From positions 1-64,000 of IMG/VR virus record IMGVR_UViG_3300001533_002564: a stretch of 64,000 bases of DNA; one strand, 5' to 3'. The position numbers and the translations under genes were made by a program. This DNA is from a virus. The notes below the pieces were generated by a model. It worked only from the letters and a program-made list of their open reading frames with translations, had not been told where the DNA came from and ran no database searches. Position 1 is the stretch's first letter; every line of letters begins with the position of its first letter. Of this stretch, positions 1,482 to 31,614 are shown piece after piece.

Positions 1482-1514
1482 AAAAAAACCCGAAACTTTT
1501 TAGGTTTCGGGTTT
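1482..1514 (-). terminator. Attenuator terminator 1
   Basis: AAACCCGAAAC / GTTTCGGGTTT stem plus U-tract. Confidence 0.85.
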
Positions 1515-1537
1515 GTGTTTTTATTGTGGTATTTTAT

Positions 1538-1666
1538 TTATATTCTAATATCCATTAAACCTTCACCCGAATCCATATTTCTGCCAAAATTTGAACAGAA
1601 TATACCATTCCCGTTACGACTAATAGTCGTTGTCGAAATAATAATATTTGTAATTCGTGTTTTCAT
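1538..1666 (-). CDS. Leader peptide 1, MKTRITNIIISTTTISRNGNGIFCSNFGRNMDSGEGLMDIRI (42 aa)
   Basis: Hand-translated; lies between promoter and terminator; contains TTCGGGT (1565-1571), complementary to the terminator 5' arm. Confidence 0.75.
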   Translation of the reverse strand: MKTRITNIIISTTTISRNGNGIFCSNFGRNMDSGEGLMDIRI

Positions 1667-1710
1667 TTTTATATGTTTATTAATTTAATTGTAAATATCT
1701 TTTATCTAAA

Positions 1711-1737
1711 TACGAGACAAAGATATAAAATGTTACA
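1711..1737 (-). promoter_or_regulatory. Composite promoter: TGTAAC-N17-CGTA with nested Bacteroidota -7 TATCTTTG
   Basis: Near-identical copy at 27079-27105. Confidence 0.65.
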
Positions 1738-1755
1738 ATATAAACAAATTATTTT

Positions 1756-2037
1756 TTATTTTTTTACTAATAAAATATCTTGTTTTTTTATAATCTCTAG
1801 ATTTTCAGGAGTATATGATATTAAATTAAATTTTAATTTTGTTGTATCTGATTGATGTTTTATTTCAAAATTACCATTAAAATCAGAATAAATGGTATCG
1901 CAATCGGAAATTATTCTTACACCAGCTAATTCTTCTCTGGTGTTTTTATCTAATATTTTACCACTAATTATATTTTTATTTGAAATTGTTGGATTTATAA
2001 ATATTAATAATAAATAAACTAATAAAATTTTTAACAT
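1756..2037 (-). CDS. Secreted carboxypeptidase-regulatory-like domain protein
   Basis: Signal peptide plus ISGKILDKNTREELAGVRI...SDFNGNFEI...ISY, typical of Bacteroidota CarboxypepD_reg domains. Confidence 0.7.
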   Translation of the reverse strand: MLKILLVYLLLIFINPTISNKNIISGKILDKNTREELAGVRIISDCDTIYSDFNGNFEIKHQSDTTKLKFNLISYTPENLEIIKKQDILLVKK

Positions 2038-2181
2038 AATCTTTTTTACATAATTACTGTTAAATGATGATATGTATATTATGTAAATATTATATATATG
2101 TTATTATTTTATGTTGTTTGTATTTACCATTTAAATGAATTATATATTCAACATTTTCCTTAAGATACGTTTATTATTTAA

Positions 2182-2745
2182 GTTGTAATTACCTTTCAAA
2201 TGAAGACCATACACAACAAATATGATAATGCCGAGGATATTGGCAGGGTTGTAATTACCTTTCAAATGAAGACCATACACAACTCCTTGTATAAAATTTA
2301 TACTCATATCATCGTTGTAATTACCTTTCAAATGAAGACCATACACAACTGCATACCATATTTATCTGATATACCTGTAGTTGTAATTACCTTTCAAATG
2401 AAGACCATACACAACTTTAATAAAGAATATAGTTTCATTTGGACTGTTGTAATTACCTTTCAAATGAAAACCATACACAACGTTGAGAGATGATATTATT
2501 TCAATTATCAAGTTGTAATTACCTTTCAAATGAAGACCATACACAACTTAGTAAGAAAGGTTTTAGCATTAATATCGGTTGTAATTACCTTTCAAATGAA
2601 GACCATACACAACAAGGTTTGTGAATAGTGGTTATTTCATCTAGTTGTAATTACCTTTCAAATGAAGACCATACACAACAAACTAATGCCAAATATATTA
2701 CTTGACCTTGTTGTAATTACCTTTCAAATGAAGACCATACACAAC
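2182..2745 (-). CRISPR. CRISPR array, 9 x 36-bp repeats and 8 x 30-bp spacers
   Basis: Repeat (minus) GTTGTGTATGGTCTTCATTTGAAAGGTAATTACAAC, starting on + at 2182, 2248, 2314, 2380, 2446 (1 SNP), 2512, 2578, 2644, 2710. Orientation inferred from boxA and the adjacent gene. Confidence 0.97.
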
Positions 2746-2940
2746 CTATATCGTATAATAATCTATTAATCATGTATTTCCTTTTATTTTTATTAAAAAA
2801 ATTTGAAAGATTCAATCCTATTATCGATGTTTCAGTTCAGATTTTAAAACCTAATTGGAATTAAGTCTGCTTCAGCATCTAAGAATTTTATTTTTTTAAA
2901 TCTCGGATGTTACATCACCCACATGATTTTATTTTAAATA

Positions 2941-2953
2941 TTTTCAAAGAACT
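2941..2953 (-). promoter_or_regulatory. boxA-like element upstream of the CRISPR array
   Basis: AGTTCTTTGAAAA, same core as the tRNA-operon copies. Confidence 0.5.
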
Positions 2954-3013
2954 TTTTATTTTAAATAATATTTTCAAATATAAACTAAATAATTTTAATT
3001 ATCAAATAAATTA

Positions 3014-4324
3014 TCATTTATTTTCAAAATATTTTTCTTTAATATTAATTGCTGCATTTAAATCAGCGTTCATTGTATGACCACATATAACACAAATAAA
3101 TTTTGATTGTGTTTGTCTATTTAATTTATTAGTATGACCACATTTTGAACATTTTTGTGATGTATGTTTAGGGTTAACAGTTACAACATTTTTACCGACA
3201 TATTCTGCTTTATATTGCATTTTAGTCCTCAATGAATATAAACCAACATCACTAAGAACCCGATTTAAATTACTTTTATTATTTGATTTACCTTTTCCAC
3301 TTCTTTTCATCATACCTTTTAAATTCAAATCTTCAAGAATATAAGTATCTACATCTTCTAATTCAATTAATGATTTTGAGATACAATGCTGTATATAATC
3401 ACGTTTTTCAGTTATTTTAAAATAAAGATTATTTATTTTTTTCTTAATTCTTTTATATGATGTAGTTTCCCAGAAATTAATGTCGGTTTTATTTTTTTTA
3501 TGATAATCTCTTTTTCTATTTAATATTTTTGATAATCGGTGTAATTCAGATTTATATTGTTTTAATAATGATATGGAATTTTTATAAATATCAATATTAA
3601 AATGTAATTCATCTGATGTTGTAATTGGTCTATGAACACCGAAATCAATACCAACACTAGTTTTTTTATCTATTGGTTTTTTTGTTTCAATAATTAATTT
3701 ATTTGGGTCATTTACATCACATTGTAATGATATAAAATATTTATCATTTTTTCTAGAAATCGTATATGAATTAATTTTAATAAATTTATTATTATCCCAA
3801 TTTTCAGAAAAAAAATGATTATGACATGATATTTTAATTTTTTTTATTTTAGGTATATCAATTAATCCAAATTTATTATTCAATAATTTTAAATTAAATG
3901 TTTTAGGTTTATTTTCATTATATTGTATTTGTCCTGTAAATGAATGTTTTGATTTTTGATTTTTAAATTTAGGAAATCCACTTCCCATTTTTTTTATATT
4001 AGCAAACGCTTTTTCAATAGCTTTTAAACTATATGTTTTACTTGTTGAGTCAATATTTTTTAAAAACCAAAATTCATCTGTATTTCCCATTTGAGTTAAA
4101 ATTTTACTCATTTCATATCTATTAAAATACAGGTTATTATCTTTCATATATTTATTACGTTCTTTTTTATCAACAATACCTATTTCAGTCATTTTATCTG
4201 AAATATCAATTTGTTGTCTTAAGCAATAATTATAAATAAATCTTGAAGTTCTAAATGAATCATCAAATGATTTAATTTGTTCGGGTGTTGGGTATATTCT
4301 AAACTTAAATGCTTTAGATATCAT
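3014..4324 (-). CDS. tnpB: TnpB/Cas12f-like RNA-guided nuclease (436 aa)
   Basis: AFKFRIYPT N-terminus, RuvC-I VGIDFG, RuvC-II LEDL, zinc ribbon CSKC/CVIC, RuvC-III NADLNAA; no tnpA nearby. Confidence 0.9.
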   Translation of the reverse strand: MISKAFKFRIYPTPEQIKSFDDSFRTSRFIYNYCLRQQIDISDKMTEIGIVDKKERNKYMKDNNLYFNRYEMSKILTQMGNTDEFWFLKNIDSTSKTYSLKAIEKAFANIKKMGSGFPKFKNQKSKHSFTGQIQYNENKPKTFNLKLLNNKFGLIDIPKIKKIKISCHNHFFSENWDNNKFIKINSYTISRKNDKYFISLQCDVNDPNKLIIETKKPIDKKTSVGIDFGVHRPITTSDELHFNIDIYKNSISLLKQYKSELHRLSKILNRKRDYHKKNKTDINFWETTSYKRIKKKINNLYFKITEKRDYIQHCISKSLIELEDVDTYILEDLNLKGMMKRSGKGKSNNKSNLNRVLSDVGLYSLRTKMQYKAEYVGKNVVTVNPKHTSQKCSKCGHTNKLNRQTQSKFICVICGHTMNADLNAAINIKEKYFENK

Positions 4325-7031: not shown

Positions 7032-10000
7032 TTATCCACATTTACTATTTCCACATCCCATACAAATAAGACATCCTTCTTTGTATTGTAGGTCATTACT
7101 GCCACATACAGGACAAGTGCCTTTACCTTTTTCACCGTCTTTAATATATCTTTTAATGACACGAGTAACACCATTTTTCCAAGTATTAATATAATCTTCT
7201 TTAAAATTTAATGAATCAATTAATTCAAAAACATATACTAATGGCATTTTATGTCTTAATACCCCAGAAATAAATTTAGCATAATTCCAGAATTCGGGAT
7301 TAAATGCGTGGTTTAGTCCAGTAAAAATATGTTTATCTCCTTGTGAATCAATATATTCAATATCATATCGTTTTCTTTTTACTTTAACTATTTTACCATC
7401 AATAAGTTCATCTATTTCAATAATATTTTTTACAACTTCACATTCAGTAATTAATGGAGGTAGTGAACTTAAACCATTTTCAAGACGACCAGTAAAAATT
7501 TCGTATGGATGACCATCTTTTAATCCAACAACAGCAATCCATTTTTCAAGTTTATTTTGAAAACGATGTATTTCTGCTTTTAATCTTTTTCCTCTTTTGG
7601 GTGCATGAACTTCTTCAATTGCCACTTCTTTTTTCTCATTATTAGATATTAGAACACCACTTCTACTACCTTCACGATAAACAGTCATTCCTTTACAACC
7701 AGCACTCCATCCAGTTTCATATACTTGACGAACTAAATCTTCAGTTGCTTCTTCGGGTAAATTAACTGTCACACTAATACTATGGTCAACATGTTTTTGT
7801 ATTCTACCTTGCATTTCAACTTTCTTAACCCAATCAACATCATTTGAAGTAGCTTTATAATAAGGTGATTTTTTTACTATTTCATCAACTTGTTCTTCTG
7901 TCATTGTTTTAACAATATCAACATCATAATCATTTGCTTTTAACCATGTTTTAAAGTTGTTATGGAAGACAAGATATTCTTTCCATGCAATTCCTTCTTC
8001 ATCAACAAAATCTATTTGAATATCTTTTTCTTGTGGATTAATTTTTCTTCTTCTTTTATAAACAGGTAAGAAAACAGGTTCAATTCCTGATGTTGTCTGT
8101 GTCATTAAACTTGCAGTACCTGTAGGTGCTATTGTTAATAATGCAATATTTCTACGACCATATTTAACCATGTCTGCATATAGTTCAGGATTTGCTTCTT
8201 TTATACGTAAAATAAATGGATTATTCTTTTCTCTTTTAGCGTCATAAATTGGAAATGCTCCACGTTCTTTTGCTAATATAACCGATGATTTATATGCATT
8301 TAATTTTAAATTTTCATGTACTTTTTCACTAAAATCATTTACACTATCAGTCCCATATGTAAGACTTAATGCTGCAAGCATGTCACCTTCAGCAGTAACA
8401 CCTAAACCAGTTCTTCTGCCTTCAATTGCTTTTTCTCTGATTTTAGTCCATAAATTAATTTCATATAATTTAATGAATTCATCTTCAGGGTCTAATTTAA
8501 TTTTAGCTAGAATATTATCAATTTTTTCTAATTCTAAATCAATAATATCATCCATATAACGCATAGCAATAATTACATCATTTTTAAATAAATCCCAATC
8601 AAAATAAGAATCAGAAGTAAATGGATTAACAACATATCCGTACAAATTAAGTGCAAGTAATCTACAACTATCATATGGACATAAAGGTATTTCACCACAA
8701 TTGTGCACACTAATTCCATTGCAATCAAATTCATGTGCAATATCAACATTACAATCATAAACATCTTCAACACCTACTAATTTTATTGATTTAATTGAAT
8801 CAGTGAAATATTCTTTATATAAACCACGCTTTAAATTATTTAATACATTATCTAATTTTGTTTGTTTATTAACGTCCTTAAAACCAATACGTTTATTAAA
8901 AACCAATAAATTTTCTTTAGATATTACTAACTCATGTTGTGCTTTTACATTATATTCTTTTTTACCACCATTACCATCAGGTAACATTTTTTTACTGTCT
9001 AATCTCCTATTTTTAAATATTGATGAGACGATACCTAACCTTAGTAACATTCTTTGAATAACTTCCAGATTATTAAGATTAGATGAAGATAGTCTAACAT
9101 TAATACCCTTTTTACTATTATTTAATACTGTACCATCAGCATCTAATATTCCTGAAATAAAACCACGATAAAAATCAGAACTTTGTGATTCAATTGCATA
9201 ACCTAAATTCTTACCGTCAAACAATCCTAAATCATTTGCTATTCTACCTAATGGATTTGATTTAACAGTAATTATTTCATTATTATCGTCACCACTACCA
9301 AGACTATCGTTATAATTCAATGATGTTTTAATTAAATCAACAGCAATTTTTTTCATTGTTGCTCGATTTTCACCCCAATATCTTAAATATGCAGTTTCAT
9401 TTACTAGAGAACCATCACCAACTAATGAACCAATTAACCAACCAATTTTATCATCGTAATTACTATCCCATGAAGATTTTAAATTTTGGTTTTTATTATA
9501 ATTTAAATTAAGTACGTCACCTTCAATCAAATCACCTAACTCAACCCATTCATATGATTTTTTTCCTCGATTTTGTTTAATAACCCTTTTAAACTTATGA
9601 TTATCAGTAGCTTTTATCTTTAAACCACGATTAGTTTCAACTTCATAAACCTTTTTATCTCCAGTATAGAAAAAACCGCCTTTTGATAAATATTGCTCGT
9701 TATCAACCAGTGCAGTAAAATCTTTACCAATTAATTCATTAACTTGTTTCGGTCCTTCATTTGTCATCACCCAAGAATCACTTGTAACACAAGGATTAGT
9801 ACTTGTTGTTTTAAATCCTAAGTCAGCATAACAATCAGGAATACTTTCAGAGATTACTTTATCCCAGAAAAGAATACCGGGTTCGCCTGATTTCCATGCA
9901 TTATGTATTATTTTTTTCCAAAGTTTTGTTGGGTCAATTTCTTTTATGATTTTAGGATTATCGCTATCAATTGGATATTTTTGTTCAAAAGCATACTCAT

Positions 10001-10688
10001 ATTTTGCAGCTTTCATAAATTCATCAGTTAATCTTACTGAAACGTTAGCACCAGTAACTTTACCTTCACTCATTTTTGCATCAATAAAATCTTCAGCATC
10101 AGGATGATTAATTGAAACACTTAACATTAATGCGCCTCTTCGACCATCTTGTGCTACTTCTTTTGTACTATTTGAATATCTTTCCATAAAAGGAACAATT
10201 CCAGTACTTGTTATCGCACTATTTTTTACTGGACTTCCTTTAGGACGAATAAATGACAGGTCTTGTCCTACTCCACCTCGTCTTTTTTGAAGTTGAACCA
10301 TATCTTGATCGAGTTTCATAATTCCACCATAACTATCACTGTCTTTATTATTTCCAATTACAAAACAATTAGATAGTGATATTATTTGAAAATTATTACC
10401 AATACCAGACATCGAACCACCTTGTGGAACAATTCTTTTAAAATTTTTAATTGTTTTATAAATTTCTTTTGCAGATAATGCATTAGGATATTTAGCTTCG
10501 ATTCTCGCAAATTCTTTTGCTAATCTCCTATGCATATTATCTGGGGATAATTCATAATAATTATTATCGTCTTTTAAACAATATTTTTTTATCCAGACAT
10601 CTGTAGCTAATTGGTCGTTATTAAAATAAGTTAATGTTGCTTCTTCAACTTGTTCTTTTGTATAAGTTTTTTTGGTTTTTTCTATCAT
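7032..10688 (-). CDS. nrdJ: Class II (B12-dependent) ribonucleotide reductase with intein
   Basis: SLSNCFV, RRGA, TNPC/GEIPL, APTGT, KGMTVYR, C-terminal zinc ribbon. Confidence 0.93.
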   Translation of the reverse strand: MIEKTKKTYTKEQVEEATLTYFNNDQLATDVWIKKYCLKDDNNYYELSPDNMHRRLAKEFARIEAKYPNALSAKEIYKTIKNFKRIVPQGGSMSGIGNNFQIISLSNCFVIGNNKDSDSYGGIMKLDQDMVQLQKRRGGVGQDLSFIRPKGSPVKNSAITSTGIVPFMERYSNSTKEVAQDGRRGALMLSVSINHPDAEDFIDAKMSEGKVTGANVSVRLTDEFMKAAKYEYAFEQKYPIDSDNPKIIKEIDPTKLWKKIIHNAWKSGEPGILFWDKVISESIPDCYADLGFKTTSTNPCVTSDSWVMTNEGPKQVNELIGKDFTALVDNEQYLSKGGFFYTGDKKVYEVETNRGLKIKATDNHKFKRVIKQNRGKKSYEWVELGDLIEGDVLNLNYNKNQNLKSSWDSNYDDKIGWLIGSLVGDGSLVNETAYLRYWGENRATMKKIAVDLIKTSLNYNDSLGSGDDNNEIITVKSNPLGRIANDLGLFDGKNLGYAIESQSSDFYRGFISGILDADGTVLNNSKKGINVRLSSSNLNNLEVIQRMLLRLGIVSSIFKNRRLDSKKMLPDGNGGKKEYNVKAQHELVISKENLLVFNKRIGFKDVNKQTKLDNVLNNLKRGLYKEYFTDSIKSIKLVGVEDVYDCNVDIAHEFDCNGISVHNCGEIPLCPYDSCRLLALNLYGYVVNPFTSDSYFDWDLFKNDVIIAMRYMDDIIDLELEKIDNILAKIKLDPEDEFIKLYEINLWTKIREKAIEGRRTGLGVTAEGDMLAALSLTYGTDSVNDFSEKVHENLKLNAYKSSVILAKERGAFPIYDAKREKNNPFILRIKEANPELYADMVKYGRRNIALLTIAPTGTASLMTQTTSGIEPVFLPVYKRRRKINPQEKDIQIDFVDEEGIAWKEYLVFHNNFKTWLKANDYDVDIVKTMTEEQVDEIVKKSPYYKATSNDVDWVKKVEMQGRIQKHVDHSISVTVNLPEEATEDLVRQVYETGWSAGCKGMTVYREGSRSGVLISNNEKKEVAIEEVHAPKRGKRLKAEIHRFQNKLEKWIAVVGLKDGHPYEIFTGRLENGLSSLPPLITECEVVKNIIEIDELIDGKIVKVKRKRYDIEYIDSQGDKHIFTGLNHAFNPEFWNYAKFISGVLRHKMPLVYVFELIDSLNFKEDYINTWKNGVTRVIKRYIKDGEKGKGTCPVCGSNDLQYKEGCLICMGCGNSKCG
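8700..9791 (-). mobile_element. LAGLIDADG intein in NrdJ (364 aa) at the active-site NPC
   Basis: TNP|CVTSDSW...ATDNH...GSLVGDG...GILDADG...SVHN|CGEIPL. Confidence 0.93.
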
Positions 10689-12796: not shown

Positions 12797-12801
12797 ATTA
12801 G

Positions 12802-20773: not shown

Positions 20774-20788
20774 ATTTAATAATTTAAA

Positions 20789-20919: not shown

Positions 20920-20921
20920 AG

Positions 20922-21285: not shown

Positions 21286-21288
21286 ATA

Positions 21289-21549
21289 TTATAATAAAAC
21301 ATTCCATTTTTCTTTAAATAATTCTTCGTAATCAATTCCATCACAAACATTTAATCCCATAACATTACCACCAGTCATAATACCAAGTAAAATATATTTT
21401 GGGTTTTCTATTCCTTCAAATAATATTGGTTCAAATGCTCTTATAGCAACTTCTTCACCTTGTAAACATTTTAACAATACATTACCATCTTCTCTATATT
21501 TAAGAAATATTGCTGGAATAATAATTATTTCATTTATTTTTTCACTCAT
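21289..21549 (-). CDS. Hypothetical protein
   Basis: ORF track. Confidence 0.55.
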   Translation of the reverse strand: MSEKINEIIIIPAIFLKYREDGNVLLKCLQGEEVAIRAFEPILFEGIENPKYILLGIMTGGNVMGLNVCDGIDYEELFKEKWNVLL

Positions 21550-21571
21550 ATTTAATTGTTAAACCATATAG

Positions 21572-22288: not shown

Positions 22289-22391
22289 AATATAAAAATA
22301 TTGATTGCTAAATTAAATAAATATACGAAGAAATGCAAGGATTGTTACAAAAAAGAATTATAATAGTAAAAACTAAATTATAAAATTTTAG

Positions 22392-22463
22392 CACACCGAG
22401 GGCGATTCGAACACCCGACATTTGGTTTTGGAGACCAACGTTCTACCACTGAACTACCGATGT
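22392..22463 (-). tRNA. tRNA-Trp(CCA)
   Basis: TTGGT-CTCCAAA-ACCAA. Confidence 0.9.
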
Positions 22464-23218
22464 ATTTTAATTATATTTTCAATAATATTTAGATATTTTA
22501 ATGATGACTTTTCTTTAAAATATTTCTGTTGTGATGTATCAATAATACATAGTTCAATTCCTTGTTCTAAACATACTTGAAATTTACGATTATCGTTGTT
22601 TTGTATTTGCGAAAGTTTATCTTGACCATGTATTGGTTCATAATGATATATCCCGTTTAATTCAAATCCAAGTTTTAAACTTGGAATATAAATATCAAAC
22701 TCAGAATTTATTGCATCTTTACGATTAAAATGAAAATCTATATTAGGATATAATTTTGTTAATTTAAATTCTAACCATACTTCTAATTTAGATTTTCTTG
22801 TACCATACTTTTTATGTATATTATTATATGTTGCAGCACAAGATTTAGAACAAAAATGATTACCTGATTTAGACTTATTTATTTGAGATATTGTTTTACT
22901 GAATTCATTACCACAATTAGTGCAATTAACTATTTTCGATTTATTTTTTGATAATTGAATACATTTTTTTGAACAAAAATCACCAATATTTCTATCATAA
23001 TTATTAAATGTTCTTTTTATTACTCTTTTTAATTTATAGAAAGTATCACCACATTCTTTACATTTACATGGTAATTTATCATTTTCTCTGGCTAAAGAAA
23101 ATTCTAATTCTGTATATAATGGAATTATATCAATAAATACTCGAAAATAAAATTTCGAATCATAACACATGTGCAACATTCTCCAGACACTGACTGGAAA
23201 ATTAAAATATATTAACAC
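22454..23218 (-). CDS. Zinc-finger plus PD-(D/E)xK (Vsr-like) putative homing endonuclease; start uncertain
   Basis: Repeated CxxC...FCSKxC motifs, EFDIYIP...FELNGIYHY. Confidence 0.7.
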   Translation of the reverse strand: MLIYFNFPVSVWRMLHMCYDSKFYFRVFIDIIPLYTELEFSLARENDKLPCKCKECGDTFYKLKRVIKRTFNNYDRNIGDFCSKKCIQLSKNKSKIVNCTNCGNEFSKTISQINKSKSGNHFCSKSCAATYNNIHKKYGTRKSKLEVWLEFKLTKLYPNIDFHFNRKDAINSEFDIYIPSLKLGFELNGIYHYEPIHGQDKLSQIQNNDNRKFQVCLEQGIELCIIDTSQQKYFKEKSSLKYLNIIENIIKIHR

Positions 23219-23672
23219 CTAATGTGATTGTTATTGCAATAAAAACAGCTAATTCTGCCCACCACATAAAATGTTTTTTATCTACTAGATAAAGTATTGG
23301 TAGTGATGCTGCAACACCTGCTGTCATATACCACATATCGTATTGAAATATCATTGCTAATCCACCTAATATCATACCACCAATTGCTGCTACTAAATGA
23401 ATTGTTTTTGTAGGATTTTTATGCATAGCAGCATTTGCTCCAACCCAAACAATACCACCACCAGCAAAAAACATTAAAATACTATTCCCAATAAATATTA
23501 CTGGAAATGCAAATAACCAAGTAAATAATACAAATAAAAAGTTTCGTTTCTTTGGTAATACGTAATAACTTTTAGAAATACTTTTTTGAATACCGTATTT
23601 TATCCAGATATAAGATACATATGATATGAAATCTAATATCATTAATGTAAATAAAATTTTTATTAATGTCAT
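23202..23672 (-). CDS. Multi-pass membrane protein
   Basis: Several hydrophobic segments; start at MTLIKILF after GTATTTAT motif (the longer ORF call overlaps tRNA-Ala). Confidence 0.7.
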   Translation of the reverse strand: MTLIKILFTLMILDFISYVSYIWIKYGIQKSISKSYYVLPKKRNFLFVLFTWLFAFPVIFIGNSILMFFAGGGIVWVGANAAMHKNPTKTIHLVAAIGGMILGGLAMIFQYDMWYMTAGVAASLPILYLVDKKHFMWWAELAVFIAITITLGVNIF

Positions 23673-23741
23673 AATTTTTTTAATATAAATACAATATTGT
23701 TTTAAATGTGGAGTGTTTGGGTTTTGAACCCGATGTTGTTG

Positions 23742-23815
23742 TGGAGTCGAGGGAGTACGATTCCCCATTTATGCGGTGCAAGCGCATCGTGTTAGCCAGT
23801 TATCACTACGACCCC
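23742..23815 (-). tRNA. tRNA-Ala(TGC)
   Basis: GGGGTCG/CGACTCC-A (G3.U70), CTTGCAC loop. Confidence 0.88.
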
Positions 23816-23846
23816 AAATTTAAATATTAATATCAAACAATTTTTG

Positions 23847-23928
23847 TCCCTTTAGAGAGAATCGAACTCTCACACCTTTCGGCACATGTTTCTAAGACAT
23901 GCGTGTCTACCAATTCCACCATAAAGGG
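23847..23928 (-). tRNA. tRNA-Leu(TAG)
   Basis: CATGT-CTTAGAA-ACATG, variable arm. Confidence 0.92.
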
Positions 23929-24038
23929 GTTATTTATCGGTTGTAGATACGATAAAGATGATTTATCAATATATTTACGCATAAATAAATTTATTTGTTA
24001 TTTTACCTACATTGACAACTCTTCATCATATACAACTT

Positions 24039-24115
24039 TGGTACTCCCTGCTGGAATCAAACCAGCGACTTTCTGCATGTAAGGCAGACACTCTATCAAT
24101 CTGAATTAAAGGAGC
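24039..24115 (-). tRNA. tRNA-Val(TAC)
   Basis: TCTGC-CTTACAT-GCAGA, encoded CCA. Confidence 0.85.
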
Positions 24116-24206
24116 ATGAAGTGCTACGCCACCTTGCACCATCCCGTTTAAGAATCACCAGAAACGAGCAGGAATCGAACCAGTTAAGAACTATTGCAAT
24201 AAGTTG

Positions 24207-24293
24207 TACCCACAGATGGATTCGAACCACCGTTATACTACTCGCCTCTTCCTTGTAAGGGAAGTGCTCTTAACCTGACTGAGCTATGTGGGC
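24207..24293 (-). tRNA. tRNA-Val(TAC) with enlarged variable region
   Basis: CTTCC-CTTACAA-GGAAG. Confidence 0.8.
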
Positions 24294-24447
24294 ATTTAAT
24301 TATTTTTGATTTACCACCTTTTCTCACCTTTCTTATTTCATTAACAATAATTTCTAGGTCATAATTTTTCTTTTTAAAAAAAGAAGGTGGTGTATCAATA
24401 AATTCACGTATAATATTTATAATATTCATTATTTTCTATTTTTAAAT

Positions 24448-24561
24448 TTATATAAAGACATCATTATTGTTTTTGGATGGCGAAAGATAATTCCAACCAG
24501 TTTGTTTAATTAATTCAAAACCTAAAAGTCCATCACCTAATATTAATATTTTTTCTTTCAT
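24448..24561 (-). pseudogene. N-terminal remnant of a Rossmann-fold (RmlD-like) enzyme
   Basis: MKEKILILGDGLLGFELIKQTGWNYLS, then stop after 37 aa. Confidence 0.45.
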
Positions 24562-24591
24562 AATGTCTTTTTTTGACAAATATACTGAAAA

Positions 24592-25242
24592 TTATTTCAT
24601 ATTTCTACCTTTAATCCAGCCAAAATTAACATAATCATTTAATAAATCTTTTTTTATTTTTTTATTCACACCGTTTTTATTTACCCAACATCTACCATAC
24701 TGAGAATTATTTTCACCAAGACCCTTTCCTTTGCTAGATTCACTCATTTTTTGTTTAGTCTCAATTGAATGTCGTTTATTTTTAAAATTATTATATTTAA
24801 TTTTACCCTCTTGATGTCTTTTTTTCATTTTTATTGAAGATTGTGCTGAATGAATTTTAAAATATTCAGGGTCATTTTTTAATTTTTTTGCTGTTGCTTT
24901 TCCACCAGCACTAGTAATTTTAAATATTTTTTCTTTAGATAACCCAACTAAACCACCATCACCACCTGTTTTTAAATTCATACACATTGGGTCTTTTAAC
25001 ATTTCTTCATTTACCAAATTTTTTTCACGTTCTTTTAGTAAATTTCTATTTTCATAAAAATCAATTATTTCAATTTTATGATTTTCTTTACCATATTTAT
25101 TAATTGAATACCAAAGTCTTTTACCACTACCAATATAACCGTCATTTAAATTATTAGTACTATGCATTCCATAATAAAATTTTTCTGTAATAATACAAGT
25201 TGTTTTATAAATAAAATGATATTTTTTTTCTTTTCGTACCAT
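24592..25242 (-). CDS. GIY-YIG (Seg-like) homing endonuclease
   Basis: HFIYKTT...FYYGMHST...GYIGSG, NUMOD3-like HSIETKQKMS. Confidence 0.85.
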   Translation of the reverse strand: MVRKEKKYHFIYKTTCIITEKFYYGMHSTNNLNDGYIGSGKRLWYSINKYGKENHKIEIIDFYENRNLLKEREKNLVNEEMLKDPMCMNLKTGGDGGLVGLSKEKIFKITSAGGKATAKKLKNDPEYFKIHSAQSSIKMKKRHQEGKIKYNNFKNKRHSIETKQKMSESSKGKGLGENNSQYGRCWVNKNGVNKKIKKDLLNDYVNFGWIKGRNMK

Positions 25243-25288
25243 CTTAATATTTTATTATAAATACTAAGACGGTACAAAAAGTTCAAGG

Positions 25289-25361
25289 TAGCGTACAGGG
25301 GAATCGAACCCCTGTTTCTAGGATGAAAACCTAGCGTCCTAGTCCACTAGACGAGTGCGCC
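25289..25361 (-). tRNA. tRNA-Glu(TTC)
   Basis: CTAGG-TTTTCAT-CCTAG. Confidence 0.92.
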
Positions 25362-25371
25362 ATATGAATAA

Positions 25372-25584
25372 TTAAAATTCACCTTTAATTATTCTTACGA
25401 TATCTTTACTACTGACCACGTTACATTTTGTAGTAATTTCATCAATTCTTTTTTTAGGAATATCATAATGATTTTTATAAAACCAGTATTTCCTAATTTT
25501 CAATTTTTTTGCCATAAGATGCAAATTCTCAATGGAATATGGCATACAAACGACATGTCTACTTTTGTCACAGTAAAATTCCAT
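25372..25584 (-). CDS. DUF4031-like protein
   Basis: LHLMAKKLKIRKYWF...HYDI. Confidence 0.55.
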   Translation of the reverse strand: MEFYCDKSRHVVCMPYSIENLHLMAKKLKIRKYWFYKNHYDIPKKRIDEITTKCNVVSSKDIVRIIKGEF

Positions 25585-25610
25585 CTCAAATAGTTTTTAA
25601 TTAATATTAG

Positions 25611-25685
25611 TAGTGCCAACGGGACTCGAACCCGCATTTGCCAGTTTGAAGGACTGATTTCCTATTCCATTTAGAAGATAGCACC
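25611..25685 (-). tRNA. tRNA-Glu(TTC), C33 variant
   Basis: TCAGT-CCTTCAA-ACTGG. Confidence 0.82.
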
Positions 25686-25723
25686 ATTTTGAATTTTCCA
25701 GACAGTGTATGGAAAATTGAAAA

Positions 25724-25860
25724 TACTTTACATACTTTTTGGCAAGTGATGATTTTTTCATGTCACAGGCTTCTGCTTATTTAAGGCAGATATGCTTATT
25801 GCACCAACTTGCAGTATTCTCATAAATTATATCCACCTGATATAATCCGACAGTAAAGTA
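25724..25860 (-). ncRNA. Putative multi-branched structured ncRNA
   Basis: TACTTTAC/GTAAAGTA closing stem; ATTATATC/GATATAAT, GCAAGT/ACTTGC and TCTGC/GCAGA inner stems. Confidence 0.4.
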
Positions 25861-25865
25861 CTTAG

Positions 25866-25938
25866 CACCCCCGACAGGACTTGAACCTGCAACCTTGGCG
25901 CAGACAACGCCTTATTCTGCCAATTGAACTACGAGGGT
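25866..25938 (-). tRNA. tRNA-Asp(GTC)
   Basis: GGCG-TTGTCTG-CGCC, G73. Confidence 0.8.
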
Positions 25939-25940
25939 AT

Positions 25941-26609
25941 TTATTGTTTTTCATAATATTTTTTCCACTTCCTAATCGCATTATCACTAACACCATATTT
26001 ACGACCAGTACCAGAATAACCTAATTCATTAATCTCAATTAATAATTGTTCATATGAAGGTCGTTTAACTTTACGTTGTTTAACTGAACGTTTTTTTAAT
26101 GAGATTTCTTTTTCTTTATTATTTAATTCATTATAATATTTTTTTCTCTTAGAATTAGATTTAAACTTAATATTTTTACCTCCATGAGTAGGAAGTGTTG
26201 CATTACAATTTGGACATAATATTCTAAGATTAATTAATCTATTATCATCATGATTTCCATTGATATGGTCAAGAATTAGACTTATTTTTTCACCATACCA
26301 CCATTCATCTTGTCCACATTTTTCACATTTACGTTCTTTTAATCCCTCATCATATAATCTTTTTTTCAGATTTTTAGTGTTATATGTTGAGCCAGTAACC
26401 AAAATTTCATTTAATAATAATTTACCATTATAATTGTTTTTTGGTTTAAAATCAAAATGTGATATATCTATATCATATTCATTAATTCTTTTTTTTATTG
26501 TTTGTCTATTACCACAATAATTATTATCATATATTTTTTTTGATACATCACTAAATGATTTCGATTCACTTACAATTTGTTTAAATTTTTTTATGTCCAT
26601 AACTGTCAT
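25941..26609 (-). CDS. HNH homing endonuclease
   Basis: Paralog of 11846-12535. Confidence 0.88.
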   Translation of the reverse strand: MTVMDIKKFKQIVSESKSFSDVSKKIYDNNYCGNRQTIKKRINEYDIDISHFDFKPKNNYNGKLLLNEILVTGSTYNTKNLKKRLYDEGLKERKCEKCGQDEWWYGEKISLILDHINGNHDDNRLINLRILCPNCNATLPTHGGKNIKFKSNSKRKKYYNELNNKEKEISLKKRSVKQRKVKRPSYEQLLIEINELGYSGTGRKYGVSDNAIRKWKKYYEKQ

Positions 26610-26670
26610 TTAATATAAATACTGTCAGTTCGACAAATATAATAATAAATGACAATTAAAACAACTCAGC

Positions 26671-26740
26671 CGACCACGTGGGATTCGAACCCCGCCCCCT
26701 CATAGACAGTGAGGAATACTTGCCATTATACTACGCAGTC
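26671..26740 (-). tRNA. tRNA-Asp(GTC)
   Basis: CCTCA-CTGTCTA-TGAGG, G73. Confidence 0.85.
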
Positions 26741-26816
26741 GATATTTGGAATGGATTATATGATTTTTTCAATACTATATAATCCATTCCTATGAATTTA
26801 ATAATTTTTACTTTTT

Positions 26817-26837
26817 CCAACATGTCAAAGAACTATA
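26817..26837 (-). promoter_or_regulatory. boxA-like antitermination element
   Basis: Identical to 1449-1469. Confidence 0.65.
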
Positions 26838-26849
26838 CACACTAAAATC

Positions 26850-26882
26850 AAAAAACCCGACTCTTTTTAGTTAGTCGGGCTT
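26850..26882 (-). terminator. Attenuator terminator 3
   Basis: AAGCCCGACT / AGTCGGGTTT plus U-tract. Confidence 0.85.
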
Positions 26883-26913
26883 CTTTTTAAGAAAGGAGTG
26901 TGTAATATTATTA

Positions 26914-27000
26914 TTACCCGACTGAACATAATCTATCCTCATCTGCTGCCCATAAGACTGCATCCAGAACTACCATTAATATGTCGAGTAAATTTTTCAT
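26914..27000 (-). CDS. Leader peptide 3, MKNLLDILMVVLDAVLWAADEDRLCSVG (28 aa)
   Basis: L/D/M/V/A/W/E run; AGTCGGGT (26916-26923) complementary to the terminator 5' arm. Confidence 0.8.
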   Translation of the reverse strand: MKNLLDILMVVLDAVLWAADEDRLCSVG

Positions 27001-27078
27001 TTGTCTTGTTATTTTTTTATTAATACTATTTTTTCATCAATTTGTTTTTAAATAAACTTATTGTCTTGAGTTCATAAA

Positions 27079-27105
27079 TACGTAGCAAAGATATAAAATG
27101 TTACA
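27079..27105 (-). promoter_or_regulatory. Composite promoter: TGTAAC-N17-CGTA with nested TATCTTTG
   Basis: Near-identical to 1711-1737. Confidence 0.65.
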
Positions 27106-27198
27106 ATAATACCAAACTTTTTTTGATTTATTTTTTAATTATTTTCTATCGACAGCCAAAAGTACTTGATAATAAGGAGATTTGGCTAATAATAGATA

Positions 27199-27561
27199 TT
27201 AATATTCATCAGATAATGAGAAAAATCTTTGAAGTTCTAACATCTTTTGTTTATCTTCATTATAAACCTTATTATAAATTGTATCTAATATTATTTTTAA
27301 ATCTTCTCTAGTAAATGTTTCGTTATTTACTAAAGAAGCAAGATTATTCCATTCATTATAATTACCATTTTCATCTAAATCATCATCACGATATTCATCA
27401 GGATCTGGTTCATTATTTTCATCATCTTCATATGGTTCATTATATGGTGCAGTTGGGTCATATTCTGCTCCAGCAGGATAATTTTCATTTAAAGGCATAC
27501 CACCTACTTTATTCATCATTTCAAAAAGCATATCTTTGCTACTATCTTTTTGTTTTTTCAT
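27199..27561 (-). CDS. Acidic late protein
   Basis: AGTATTTAT upstream; SKDMLFEMM resembles SKERLFEVM of 35971. Confidence 0.7.
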   Translation of the reverse strand: MKKQKDSSKDMLFEMMNKVGGMPLNENYPAGAEYDPTAPYNEPYEDDENNEPDPDEYRDDDLDENGNYNEWNNLASLVNNETFTREDLKIILDTIYNKVYNEDKQKMLELQRFFSLSDEY

Positions 27562-27757
27562 AATATTCTAAATTTATAATAAATACTTTATAACTATAAA
27601 AAAGGTGATAATAGTAGCGAACTTCTTATCACCTTTATATGGTCGAAACCATAACAGTCCTAAAACCGTATATCGTTAAATTATCTTTTAACATAAATAC
27701 TTATTCAAAATATAATATTCTGGCACGTTTATTGTTTTTTAATTAAAAATTATTCAC

Positions 27758-28498
27758 ATGAAAAAATTATTACTTACATTATTATTATTTTTATTTACAA
27801 TTCCATTATTTTCACAAACAGCATACATTAATGATAACAACAGAGAACGTTTAATTAAACAATTTTTTTCTGTCGATACAATTCAGAAAGATACAACATA
27901 TACTATTCAATATACTTTATATGTAAATAGATTAGTTCATTATGTATATCCATTTGGTTATAGGTCATTCTATAATAGACATTATCCTTATTATAATAAT
28001 TATTGGTCATATGATTATACTTGGTGGTATAATAACGATTGGTATAATCCTTACTGGTTTTACTATGATAGTTGGTATTATAATAATTATAGATGTTATT
28101 ATAGATATTATTGGAACTATCACAAACCATATTATAAACCAATTAGACAAAGAACTGTTGTAACTAGAAATGCTAAATCTGTTAAGCATGATATTAAATC
28201 AACAAGAGTAAGCACTCAAAATCATACTAGACCTGCTACTAATAGAACAGAAAGATATAATAGACCAAGGAGTCATTATAATAGTGAATCAAGATATGTT
28301 CGACAAGCAAAAACTTATGAAAATACTAGACCAAATAATAATAGAAGAAGTTCATATACAAGAACAAATCCAAGAACACGTAGTTATAACACACCAACAA
28401 GGTCGAAGTCAACTACTGTAAGAAGTTCTAATTCAAGTGGAACAAGAAGTTCTGGTAGTAGAAGTTCTTCAGGAAGTAGAAGTGGTGGTAGAAGATAA
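27758..28498 (+). CDS. Secreted Y/W-rich protein with R/S-rich tail
   Basis: Signal peptide; low-complexity architecture common in Bacteroidota. Confidence 0.7.
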   Translation: MKKLLLTLLLFLFTIPLFSQTAYINDNNRERLIKQFFSVDTIQKDTTYTIQYTLYVNRLVHYVYPFGYRSFYNRHYPYYNNYWSYDYTWWYNNDWYNPYWFYYDSWYYNNYRCYYRYYWNYHKPYYKPIRQRTVVTRNAKSVKHDIKSTRVSTQNHTRPATNRTERYNRPRSHYNSESRYVRQAKTYENTRPNNNRRSSYTRTNPRTRSYNTPTRSKSTTVRSSNSSGTRSSGSRSSSGSRSGGRR

Positions 28499-28499
28499 T

Positions 28500-28922
28500 T
28501 TATTTTTTAAAATGTGGATTTAATTTAATTGGACTATATTCAATTTCATATATTTTAAAATAGGTTTCAAACAATGACTTAATATTTATACTTCCATATG
28601 AATTCATTGAATGTATAATGATTTCATGTGGAAGTTCTAATTTATTATCCATACAATAATTAATAAGCCATTTAGCACAATGATATCCAGTTTTTTCACT
28701 GTCTTCTTTACTATAATCGAAATTTTGTTGTTTATAATGTTCATAAGCAAGGTCATGGTCAAAAGCAATTACTTCTGGAATACCTTTCTTTTCAATAAGT
28801 GATATAAATTCATAGTAATTCCTAACAATAACTCAATCAGGTTCGTTAAATACTGGAAGTCCCATATAACTAAATGTTTCTTTCGGTATTCTCACATCAT
28901 CCAAAAATAATTTATAATCCAT
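28500..28922 (-). pseudogene. Cyclic-phosphate-processing receiver-domain protein with in-frame TGA at codon 30
   Basis: YKLFLDDVRIP...PD*VIVRNYYEF...AFDHDL...EKTGYHCAKWL...IHSMNSYG; missing from the ORF track. Confidence 0.75.
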
Positions 28923-29061
28923 TAATTTCTTTTCTTATTACTTTTTTATCTACATTTCTACGTATTTTAGCTGTCAATTTTTTTCCCCATTTTCTTACAT
29001 GACCTGCCCATTCTTTATTTAAGAATGAATTTTCTTTATGTCCAACTCTCAATTTACTCAT
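28912..29061 (-). CDS. Small basic protein (49 aa)
   Basis: MSKLRVGHKENSFLNKEWAGHVRKWGKK...; overlaps both neighbours in operon fashion. Confidence 0.5.
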   Translation of the reverse strand: MSKLRVGHKENSFLNKEWAGHVRKWGKKLTAKIRRNVDKKVIRKEINGL

Positions 29062-29282
29062 AAATCATTTTTTCTTAAATTTTGTATTCCAACTAAATCT
29101 TTTAGATTAATATTAAATCTCGGTATCATTCCACCTTCAACCTTTTTCATTACAATGAATGAAACATTATATTGTAAGTCTTTAGGGTCATACATAGTTG
29201 GTGTTATTATTGCTTCGTATTCAGAACCTAATTCTTCTTCAACGAATTCTTTTATTTTTTTTATCAATTTTTCTGCTTCCAT
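29058..29282 (-). CDS. Hypothetical protein
   Basis: ORF track. Confidence 0.55.
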   Translation of the reverse strand: MEAEKLIKKIKEFVEEELGSEYEAIITPTMYDPKDLQYNVSFIVMKKVEGGMIPRFNINLKDLVGIQNLRKNDL

Positions 29283-29344
29283 AATACAAAGATAATAATT
29301 TTACAATAATTAGCAAGAAATGTTATAAAATAGTATTTATTATC

Positions 29345-30028
29345 ATGAAAATAGTTGATATTATAAATGAAGAGATTAGTAGTTATTTGAATGAACAAAA
29401 TATATGGTATCATGGAACACCAGATAGTAAAGAATTAAAACAAAGTGGTGGATTTACACAGAGAACTAGTACAACTGATTATATTTCAGACCCTAAAAGA
29501 TGGCGAGAATTGCAGAATGAAATGCAAATAGCAAGAAATACTGGAAAAGAAGACCTGTACTTCGAATTATTAGACCAAGCAGGCGCATTAAGAAAACACA
29601 TGAAATATAAAAAACCAATATATTTTACTGATAAATCTAATGTTGCTAGTACATATACTGATGATAAAAGAGCATTTGATTATCAAAGTGCTGAACCAGC
29701 ATTATTAAAAGCAGAAATTAATGATAGTGGAAATGTTCTTAAAGTAAATGCACAAGGAGAAAATTTTCGTGGAATTAAAATAAATATTGTTAGAGATGCA
29801 TTAATAAAGGCAGGTATTAGTGAAAATGAAATTGAAAAATATTTCGATATGTTTCCAACTGATATAAGAAATGGTAAAATGTCAGCAGAAACTCTGGCAA
29901 TTATTGCACAATTATTAGGTTTTGATATTGTTGATGTACAGGGTGTTTTAGATAGTTATAATGTTGGTAATACTAAATCTACAATAAGAATGGTTTTCGA
30001 CCCACAGAGAATTAATATTATTAATTAA
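29345..30028 (+). CDS. Putative ADP-ribosyltransferase-fold late protein
   Basis: IINEE N-terminus; WYHGT...IYFTD...ASTY. Confidence 0.5.
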   Translation: MKIVDIINEEISSYLNEQNIWYHGTPDSKELKQSGGFTQRTSTTDYISDPKRWRELQNEMQIARNTGKEDLYFELLDQAGALRKHMKYKKPIYFTDKSNVASTYTDDKRAFDYQSAEPALLKAEINDSGNVLKVNAQGENFRGIKINIVRDALIKAGISENEIEKYFDMFPTDIRNGKMSAETLAIIAQLLGFDIVDVQGVLDSYNVGNTKSTIRMVFDPQRINIIN

Positions 30029-30031
30029 TTG

Positions 30032-30104
30032 CTGTCCTTGCAGGACTCGAACCTGCACTCTTCACAGCCAAAATGTGACGTGTTGCCAATTACACTAAAG
30101 GACA
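30032..30104 (-). tRNA. tRNA-Gln(TTG)
   Basis: TCACA-TTTTGGC-TGTGA, U1-A72, G73. Confidence 0.92.
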
Positions 30105-30163
30105 ATTTTTATGCACTCCAGAACTCATAAACATACTTTATGAGTCCCAGAACTCATATTTTG

Positions 30164-30247
30164 CTGACCCCGTGGGACTCGAACCCACAAACCTTTACGG
30201 CATCTGCTTCAAAGACAGACGTGTTTAGCCAATTCCACCAAAGGTCA
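30164..30247 (-). tRNA. tRNA with TTG (Gln) anticodon on a Leu-type class II body
   Basis: TCTGT-CTTTGAA-GCAGA, variable arm TGCCGTAAAGGT, U1-A72, G73. Confidence 0.8.
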
Positions 30248-30979
30248 ATTTCTATTTTGTTCGTATTTTTTTTGCCATTTTTTTATTGTAACATCACTAA
30301 CACCATATTTTCTACCCGTTGCAGAATAACCCAAATTATTAATATCACACATTAATTTTTCATAATCTGGTCGTTTTACTTTTCTTTGTTTTAAACTAAT
30401 TTCATTTTGACAATTTTCACAAAAAACTTTATTATTAACAGAAATACCACATTTTATACAATAATTAAGTTTTCTTTTTTTATTGTTTTTCTTTTTTTTA
30501 CCAGCATAATTTTCAGTTTGCGAATGACAATTTGGACATAATAATCTTAAATTAGTTATTCTATTATCATTATTCTTACCATTAATGTGATCTAATTGTA
30601 ATACCAATGGTTTATCTAACCAAGAATTAATTTGACAAATAGCGCATTCATTTTTTAATAATCCTAAATTCAATAATTTTTTCTTTAAATTTACTGAAGA
30701 AGTATATGTTGAATTTTTAACTAAAATATTTTCAATTGGTATTGGTTTAAATTTATTCCCTTGTGAAATATTTTCTTGTCTTCTTTTTTTCACATTATTA
30801 TTGAATTTTTCATGACTAATATTTTCAATTTTTGTTCTATATCGAAGCATTTTTATTAATGATTTCGAAACATTTAAATTTATTTTTTTGAAAAATTCAT
30901 CATATGATGATGAAGTATCTAAATTTTCTTGTATCAACTCTTTACTAAATTGCCATATAATATGTTTTCTCATACCCAC
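30245..30979 (-). CDS. HNH homing endonuclease
   Basis: LQLDHINGKNNDN...LCPNCHSQT plus HTH. Confidence 0.88.
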   Translation of the reverse strand: MGMRKHIIWQFSKELIQENLDTSSSYDEFFKKINLNVSKSLIKMLRYRTKIENISHEKFNNNVKKRRQENISQGNKFKPIPIENILVKNSTYTSSVNLKKKLLNLGLLKNECAICQINSWLDKPLVLQLDHINGKNNDNRITNLRLLCPNCHSQTENYAGKKKKNNKKRKLNYCIKCGISVNNKVFCENCQNEISLKQRKVKRPDYEKLMCDINNLGYSATGRKYGVSDVTIKKWQKKYEQNRN

Positions 30980-31015
30980 AAATTTAATATAAATACTGTG
31001 GGTTTGAGAAAAATG

Positions 31016-31088
31016 TCGAGAATGTCAGATTCGAACTGCAACTTATCATCCCAAATGATATATGATACCTGATTTCACCACATTCTCG
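31016..31088 (-). tRNA. tRNA-Pro(TGG)
   Basis: TATCA-TTTGGGA-TGATA. Confidence 0.8.
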
Positions 31089-31118
31089 TAATAATATTTC
31101 AAAGAACTTAAGTTTTTA

Positions 31119-31192
31119 GGGTGTAAGGACGGTACTGACCCGTCTTCTCCAAATTCACAGTTTGGCGCCATCACCTTAATGCTTCAAACACC
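31119..31192 (-). tRNA. tRNA-His(GTG)
   Basis: CCAAA-CTGTGAA-TTTGG, G-1/C73; two acceptor mismatches. Confidence 0.75.
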
Positions 31193-31208
31193 ATATAATA
31201 TTTTATTG

Positions 31209-31283
31209 TCTGAGTGGCAAGATTCGAACTTGCGAACACGTGCTTCCAAGGCACGCCCATATAGCCGTCTGTGGAACACCCAG
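31209..31283 (-). tRNA. tRNA-Pro(TGG)
   Basis: CGTGC-CTTGGAA-GCACG. Confidence 0.88.
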
Positions 31284-31317
31284 ATAAAATTTATAACTGT
31301 ACTATATCCCGATTGTC

Positions 31318-31446
31318 TTACTTCTTGCCTTTTAAAGCAGCCAGTCTACCCTGCATTCTACGTGCCTTTTCTGGATTGTCTTTAAATTGCAGAAGCTGTC
31401 TTTCCAATCTCTTTCTTCTGTTTTCAACACTTTTTTCCTTTGCCAT
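31318..31446 (-). CDS. Small basic protein (42 aa) at the head of the Pro/His/Gln operon
   Basis: MAKEKSVENRRKRLERQLLQFKDNPEKARRMQGRLAALKGKK. Confidence 0.55.
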   Translation of the reverse strand: MAKEKSVENRRKRLERQLLQFKDNPEKARRMQGRLAALKGKK

Positions 31447-31477
31447 GTCTTATACGATTTTATTTAAAAAAGGTTAT

Positions 31478-31508
31478 AAAAAAACCCCACTCTTTTCAGA
31501 ATGGGGTT
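31478..31508 (-). terminator. Attenuator terminator 4
   Basis: AACCCCATTC-TGAAAA-GAGTGGGGTT plus U-tract. Confidence 0.85.
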
Positions 31509-31539
31509 CGTGTTTAACCCAAAACTTCTTCTCGAAAAA

Positions 31540-31614
31540 TTAAGTGTAGCTTCCCCATTCACCATCCTGTGGATGTTGTTGCGGTTGGGGTTGTATGTTC
31601 ACTAAATTTTTCAT
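31540..31614 (-). CDS. Leader peptide 4, MKNLVNIQPQPQQHPQDGEWGSYT (24 aa)
   Basis: QPQPQQHPQ run; GAATGGGG (31553-31560) complementary to the terminator 5' arm. Confidence 0.82.
   Translation of the reverse strand: MKNLVNIQPQPQQHPQDGEWGSYT

Follow-up and report, generated by a model that had tools for sequence, protein, structure and literature searches.

Leader-peptide attenuation is a textbook mode of control for amino-acid supply genes. Enterobacterial leaders respond to a single amino acid (trpL, hisL, leuL, pheL) or to several (thrL to Thr and Ile, ilvL to Ile, Val and Leu), and the pheM leader attenuates E. coli pheST, the synthetase operon for one amino acid. T-box riboswitches tune translation-supply genes to the state of a particular transfer RNA (tRNA) through a choice between terminator and antiterminator. 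The nearest published inducible accessory tRNA array is the trn operon of Anabaena sp. PCC 7120, a long array on a megaplasmid that is induced by translational stress and controlled by the transcriptional repressor TrcR; neither paper on it mentions a leader peptide or attenuation (PMC8421152, PMC10272220). Here we describe four putative leader-peptide attenuators, L1 to L4, each in front of a group of phage tRNA genes within a stretch of 64,000 nucleotides (nt) from IMG/VR virus record IMGVR_UViG_3300001533_002564 (positions 1 to 64,000, hereafter the window), where attenuation seems to control the tRNAs themselves.

The phage units share with the thrL/ilvL/trpL class a short leader open reading frame (ORF) that has a start codon, is rich in regulatory codons and precedes the genes that would be regulated. 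They also share an intrinsic terminator and mutually exclusive 1:2, 2:3 and 3:4 helices with region 1 in the regulatory codons, and, as in thrL and ilvL, one leader covers several amino acids. They differ in lying in a phage genome with Bacteroidota-type signals, in jointly covering 20 amino acids with four units, and in their targets; the enterobacterial leaders regulate biosynthetic enzymes, whereas the phage units precede tRNA, transfer-messenger RNA (tmRNA) and inserted endonuclease genes, and the product relieving the stall would be the tRNA itself. None of the Rfam leader families (Thr_leader, His_leader, Trp_leader, Leu_leader and others) matched positions 1-34000 at the gathering threshold, the best leader match being Thr_leader on the L3 unit of a relative, at 27 bits against a cut-off of 55. 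Like pheM, the phage units would apply leader-peptide attenuation to a component of the translation apparatus, pheM doing so for one amino acid in a cellular genome. The likeness to T-box riboswitches lies in the terminator/antiterminator choice that tunes translation supply to tRNA state; a T-box, however, binds uncharged tRNA without translation, whereas the ribosome is the proposed sensor here, and the Rfam T-box model found no match at the gathering threshold in positions 1-34000. Like the Anabaena trn operon, the phage units would keep an accessory tRNA array off until translation is impaired; the Anabaena operon is repressor-controlled and lies on a cyanobacterial megaplasmid. Full-text literature searches found no publication on leader-peptide attenuation of tRNA genes, in line with the original prediction, a reading made from the DNA alone, which knew of no such description for phage tRNA arrays. 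The leader, the terminator and the alternative helices of the leader-peptide attenuator class are found here, and what appears to be new is their application to tRNA genes.

The window has a GC content of 25-30% and is part of a 104-kb unclosed contig. Its source is an uncultured giant freshwater phage of ~330-360 kb, probably one of the Bacteroidota phages. ARAGORN and Rfam locate 24 tRNA genes, one tRNA-like element and one tmRNA gene between 82 and 31283, all on the minus strand, to which the coordinates of units and genes below refer. The tRNA genes sort into four groups. The L4 operon (30031-31283) encodes tRNA-Pro, His, Pro, Gln and Gln. The L3 operon (16618-26741) holds two genes each for Asp, Glu and Val, then Leu, Ala, Trp, the tmRNA (20919-21285; Rfam 98 bits), two further Leu and Met. 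The L2 operon begins at 12801-13206 with the tRNA-like element followed by Lys, Lys and Tyr, and the L1 operon (82-1371), which runs to the contig end, carries tRNA-Cys, Ile (GAU), Ser (UGA) and Asn (GUU). The anticodons are mostly U34 and suit phage coding at 25-30% GC.

It had been claimed that each block is preceded by a promoter, an ORF of 24-42 codons and a GC-rich hairpin with a U-tract. We read the sequences directly upstream of each tRNA group, with coordinates fixed by script, and recovered this order in all four units: a promoter-like site, an ATG ORF of 24-42 codons, a spacer of 25-33 nt and a GC-rich hairpin with a 7-9 bp stem followed by U6-U7. The promoter lies 150-250 nt upstream of each terminator and only the leader lies between the two. 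Strict terminators are sparse, with seven on this strand in 33 kb; four are the leader-unit terminators, and none falls inside the L3 operon. The promoter-like sites of L1, L3 and L4 read TTTG-N19-TAnnTTTG, a Bacteroidota-type match to consensus only, and a longer promoter motif common to L1-L3 occurs nowhere else in the window.

In L4 the promoter-like site (31634-31664; TTTG-N19-TATATTTG, of the Bacteroidota -33/-7 type by consensus match only) is followed by a leader ORF of 24 codons (31540-31614), kept in 27 unique relatives, whose codons 8-16 read QPQPQQHPQ. Region 1 (ACCCCAACC, 31583-31591) sits within Q-P-Q codons and pairs in the minimum free energy (MFE) fold with region 2, the putative antiterminator (GAATGGGG, 31553-31560), which is complementary to the terminator arm CCCCATTC. 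The terminator (31478-31506) consists of CCCCATTCT, a GAAA loop, AGAGTGGGG and U7. The L3 promoter-like site (27075-27116; TTTG-N19-TATCTTTG, then CGTATTTA) is near-identical to that of L1 (1707-1748). The L3 ORF (26914-27000; 28 codons, 19 unique relatives) has L, D, M, V, A, W or E at 18 of codons 4-22; region 1 (TTACTCGAC, 26983-26991) occupies codons 4-6 and pairs with region 2 (AGTCGGGT, 26916-26923), which overlaps the stop codon and complements the arm of the terminator (26850-26880) with one terminal G·U. L2 has the promoter motif of L1 and L3 (13594-13624) and an ORF of 30 codons (13462-13554; 11 unique relatives) with K or Y at 10 of codons 6-17 (KYYYCKKSYKKY). Its region 1 (13526-13536) lies within Tyr codons, its region 2 (CGAATCGGG, 13489-13497) is complementary to the arm CCCGATTCG and its terminator spans 13410-13436. 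The L1 ORF (1538-1666) is the longest at 42 codons, of which codons 3-30 specify T, R, I, N, S, G, F and C only, and is matched in 12-13 unique relatives; region 1 is at 1652-1660, region 2 (TTCGGGT, 1565-1571) is complementary to the arm ACCCGAA, and the terminator is at 1482-1512. The distal ORF segments of 7-9 nt originally named as partners of the terminator 5′ arm were thus all located and pair as claimed, with 2:3 complementarity of 7-9 bp in the window units.

From this layout, and from the conservation and codon content described below, we think it likely that the four units are ribosome-mediated transcription attenuators, one per tRNA operon. Relatives were gathered by pattern scans of IMG/VR and from loci around an RNA ligase gene, whose IMG/VR relatives show 64-73% identity on contigs of up to 349 kb. 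This gave ~67 unique leader-terminator sequences (27 for L4, 19 for L3, 11 for L2 and 12-13 for L1), in which leader composition and layout are kept and residue order drifts. The full tRNA region could be assembled for three ligase relatives, two of them complete genomes according to CheckV; the L1 and L3 leaders are present in all three, the L2 leader was read in two and so was the L4 leader. A 2:3 helix of 6-12 bp is found in 67/67 unique sequences, each with p <= 0.05 against shuffled ORFs. As the alignments shift around regions 2 and 3, column-wise covariation was dropped for L1 and L4 and replaced by per-sequence duplex scores with a permutation of own arms against relatives' arms. Own-arm pairing is favoured in L1 (0/5000 permutations), L3 (p=0.0046) and L2 (p=0.028). 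In the L3 extension pairs 11 cells are changed on both sides, which 5/500 shuffles reach. The search patterns left the L1 sequences and the ligase-derived L2 loci unconstrained, and in these classes arm and partner switch jointly, for example CCCGACAC with GTGTCGGG. Further examples are the wholesale compensatory switches in L104 (CGAGTCTTT with AAAGACTCG) and L009 (TAAGACTGG with CCGGTCTTA). Antiterminator and terminator covary in L1-L3.

The original prediction assigned the units to the trp/his/thr-type layout and overlooked the helix that completes this classical design. In full-length MFE folds of all four leaders region 2 forms a helix with the first of the regulatory codons; in L3, for instance, codons 4-6 (TTACTCGAC) pair with GTCGGGTAA. 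The 1:2 helix is present in 65/67 unique relatives, with mean energy z of -3.4 for L3, -2.5 for L4, -1.3 for L1 and -0.7 for L2; region 2 of L4 is paired upstream in 27/27 relatives. Across the 19 L3 sequences 97.7% of cells of the 1:2 helix are paired, and all one-sided changes preserve pairing, among them a C-to-U substitution by which a Leu codon becomes Phe. The four units therefore have all three helices of the trp type (1:2, 2:3 and 3:4), and regions 1 and 2 bracket the regulatory codons. The leader ORFs themselves are conserved in relatives at the amino-acid level; single-base codon variants are synonymous in 20/43 cases in L4 against 0.19 expected and in 17/37 in L3 against 0.23. In L023 the L4 ORF is frameshifted and stops at a TGA within GAATGGGG; the conserved element there is the RNA segment and not the peptide tail.

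The codon runs had been said to match the downstream tRNAs. Scoring leader windows against the phage's own amino-acid composition, we obtained for the best window of each leader with its own block -log10 p = 10.0, 6.6, 7.4 and 10.1, whereas scoring against any other block gave <=2.1. None of 1500 random peptides matched the observed scores, even when the best of the four sets was allowed. The union of the four codon sets is 20 amino acids (eight in L1, two in L2, seven in L3, three in L4), as originally summed, with a few off-set residues inside the runs (Ile in L3; Cys and Ser in L2). Since the L1 operon runs off the contig, the presence of Thr, Arg, Gly and Phe tRNA genes in it was a prediction until the relatives were examined. 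In the three relatives with the whole region the L1 block encodes Thr, Cys, Ile, Ser, Phe, Gly, Asn and Arg tRNAs, which supplies all four, and the block order Pro-His-Gln / Asp..Met / Lys-Tyr / Thr..Arg is kept in all three. Extras in the L1 block are an amber-suppressor tRNA in two of the three and a stray tRNA-Gln in the third. Leader and block content have changed together in one divergent genome; its L4 leader has a CGC codon and the block opens with tRNA-Arg(ACG), and its L3 leader is without V and M ahead of a block without Val and Met tRNAs.

Given the anatomy, the conservation, the covariation and the codon-to-tRNA match, we infer leader translation, stalling, read-through and a physiological purpose along the following lines. 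A host-type promoter would start the transcript and the short leader ORF would be translated. Region 1, in the first regulatory codons, could pair with region 2, which could alternatively pair with region 3, the 5′ arm of the terminator. During smooth decoding the ribosome would pass or cover region 2, or the 1:2 helix would re-form behind it, leaving the 3:4 terminator to form and the tRNAs silent. Scarcity of a cognate charged tRNA would stall the ribosome between regions 1 and 2; region 2 would then be free to pair with region 3, and RNA polymerase would read through into the tRNA genes and, in L3, also into the tmRNA gene. The tmRNA would be co-induced with the L3 tRNAs upon ribosome stalling; this gene occupies the same position in relatives. 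The outcome would be product feedback, a gauge of decoding rate that replenishes the tRNA pool one block at a time and covers 20 amino acids. The original wording, that exactly the scarce tRNAs are transcribed, is too strong, as control works on blocks of 2-8 amino acids.

To represent the ribosome, transcripts were cut before region 4 and folded with a footprint masked codon by codon. With the A-site on regulatory codons 2:3 forms; once the ribosome comes within about five codons of region 2 the helix is blocked, and in L3 and L4 the block persists to the stop codon.

Several observations weigh against attenuation as described. The MFE of the cut transcripts already forms 2:3 without a ribosome in L1-L3, so that the off state would depend on folding order, that is on kinetics, as in the classical systems; a thermodynamic proof of the off state was dropped, equilibrium folding being unable to settle kinetics. 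Region 2 of L1 and L2 ends 24 nt before the stop codon and is left uncovered by a terminating ribosome, and termination in these two units must consequently rely on 1:2 re-forming behind the ribosome. Leader and tRNA content track each other imperfectly: the L3 blocks of L033 and L055 are without Glu/Val/Ala or Val/Ala tRNAs with the leader codons retained, the L4 leader of L027 has Arg codons with no Arg tRNA downstream, and the stray tRNA-Gln noted above sits in an L1 block. L4 gives no signal in the own-versus-other arm test (p=0.67), because the search pattern had fixed the L4 core. Synonymous enrichment is weak in L2 (8/33) and L1 (19/56). All relatives belong to one clade and the counts are not independent events. 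Finally, a search for RNA sequencing runs matching 25800-31700 listed none; the matching runs, from aquatic, freshwater-sediment and bioreactor metagenomes, two of them perhaps the source of the contig, are apparently all DNA libraries.

As to purpose, one possibility, which we hold tentatively and regard as rather improbable, is that the array is a complete 20-amino-acid decoding-rate sensor giving the phage a self-regulating, host-independent translation supply, of value mainly as counter-defence. Depletion of particular tRNAs, whether by tRNA-cleaving defences of the host or by phage-induced host shut-off, would then turn on the matching block within seconds. Only context links the array to nucleases, in the form of an RNA ligase gene next to the Lys/Tyr unit and a tmRNA gene within L3, and an anti-nuclease purpose of the attenuators is speculation.

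The same attenuators might instead respond to another signal, general translation load or infection stage and not damage to, or loss of, particular tRNAs. Amino-acid starvation, a burst of AT-rich mRNAs from the phage and the shut-off of the host could each slow translation, and the codon sets would mainly serve to let any slowdown open all blocks. A stalled ribosome cannot distinguish a missing, an uncharged and a cleaved tRNA, as is established for trp/his-type attenuators, and the pooling of 2-8 amino acids per block makes the control coarse. The leaders of some relatives keep codons of lost tRNAs, and the mostly U34 anticodons fit a need set by 25-30% GC coding. A load sensor, however, needs no strict partition of 20 amino acids with each leader matching its own block, and it does not call for the joint alteration of leader and block content seen in the divergent genome. 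We consider this version unlikely.

It is very improbable that the hairpins are ordinary terminators or insulators of upstream transcription, with tRNAs made from their own promoters and the small ORFs untranslated by-products. The promoters were assigned by consensus alone, which leaves some room for this, as do the distances in the window, where 110-316 nt separate the U-tract from the first ARAGORN tRNA in L1-L3; among 66 unique attenuators this gap exceeds 60 nt in 20. In the other 46/66, however, the first tRNA lies <=60 nt past the U-tract, in some only 4-10 nt, and such a gap leaves no space for a separate promoter, so that tRNA expression needs read-through. An insulator would also not account for a promoter 150-250 nt before each terminator with only a leader between, for an ORF composition that mirrors the tRNAs, for the enrichment of synonymous variation, or for 2:3 and 1:2 helices that are conserved and covary.

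The motif GTTCWTTGAMA, a boxA-like consensus of the rrn (Nus factor) type, has four matches in the window against 0.48 expected, three of them in the L1, L3 and L4 units: GTTCTTTGACA just past the L3 terminator (26823-26833) and past the L1 terminator (1455-1465), and GTTCTTTGAAA inside the L4 operon (31097-31107). Such sites would fit a polymerase made processive over long untranslated arrays, and in the attenuation scheme they may serve to keep it so. An alternative in which the leader ORF plays no part and read-through depends on a factor acting in trans (an antiterminator protein of the phage, Nus factors bound to boxA, or tRNA bound directly as in T-boxes) gains something from these motifs in three of four units and from giant phages often encoding transcription factors of their own, but is hardly credible, for the boxA-like sites lie downstream of the terminators and are unable to act on them, positions 1-34000 hold no T-box or other Rfam cis-regulator at threshold, and the block-matching codon sets and the placing of region 1 in regulatory codons would go unexplained.

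The genes around the units invite comparison with the T4 tRNA cluster, which is associated with the homing endonuclease SegB and the Rnl1/Pnk repair pair (partly PMC8421152). As in T4, the tRNA array has been invaded by homing-endonuclease genes, and a gene for a T4 Rnl1-type RNA ligase lies just upstream of the Lys/Tyr (L2) unit. The T4 tRNA cluster is not known to have an attenuator. Unlike the T4 pair, the ligase has no identified partner; PHROGs and Pfam searches of the neighbouring ORFs found no polynucleotide kinase and no other RNA-repair partner. The ligase is <=35% identical to those of deposited phages, and megablast of 19.5 kb against GenBank phages found no close cultured relative. 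Many gaps between tRNAs, including those of the L3 operon, are filled by HNH, LAGLIDADG or NUMOD3 homing-endonuclease genes, one being the HNH gene in the L4 operon (30245-30979). Between 16700 and 31000 such genes often separate two copies of one tRNA (Asp-ORF-Asp, Glu-ORF-Glu, Pro..Pro). This interrupted array is reminiscent of segB in the T4 tRNA cluster, and the arrays of relatives are far more compact. Between the L2 and L1 units we note an IS605-family TnpB/Cas12f-like gene (3014-4324) followed by a boxA-like GTTCTTTGAAA (2942-2952), and at 7032-10688 a ribonucleotide reductase large subunit split by an intein with a LAGLIDADG domain.

A few features within the blocks are also unusual. 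The tRNA-like element (13122-13206; Rfam tRNA, 39 bits), the first gene past the L2 terminator, has normal D and T arms and an anticodon loop of 20 nt, whose core, GCACATGCTATC, recurs in an element at the equivalent place in the relative L002. The ARAGORN call for the window element, Cys(GCA), was obtained only under relaxed thresholds and was rejected, as the loop is implausible; an intron-bearing tRNA, a pseudogene and a decoy are the candidate readings. tRNA-Ile(GAU) (565-641; Rfam 33 bits) combines an odd D arm with a long variable region, and its 5′ end is overlapped by an ORF of 198 codons (609-1205). The space between the L4 terminator and the first tRNA-Pro, only 9-50 nt in most relatives, here contains a very basic ORF of 42 codons (31318-31446) with no match in Pfam or PHROG. 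In L3, CTCCTTTCTT lies between the leader stop codon and the terminator (26889-26898), a sequence matching the anti-Shine-Dalgarno region at the 3′ tail of Bacteroidota 16S rRNA; this sequence is kept in three relatives found by synteny and absent from the divergent L3-type leaders L023 and L040. The amber-suppressor tRNA (anticodon CTA; ARAGORN label ‘Pyl’) closes the L1 block of L016 and L017 (relatives G001 and G002) and hints at TAG read-through or recoding in the clade; the corresponding end of the L1 block of the present phage falls outside the contig. Among bacterial genomes the L4 pattern matched only two contigs of metagenome-assembled genomes (MAGs), which carry the L4 attenuator: L160 (JBAZIW010000001.1; 362,763 bp), filed as a Candidatus Paceibacterota MAG, and L159 (CAYPJS010000146.1; 5.9 kb), binned with an Anaerolinea MAG. 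The two look like misbinned phage scaffolds, which they probably are, and give no host.

The attenuator design is conserved across dozens of uncultured freshwater phages. Attenuation at the level of the tRNAs would close a direct feedback loop on decoding speed. If the reading is right, it would explain how giant phages with full tRNA sets time tRNA expression, and tRNA availability in Bacteroidota could be sensed codon by codon with compact, modular elements. What phage tRNAs are for has long been debated, and this question would gain a testable readout, the leaders revealing which codons are of concern to the phage.

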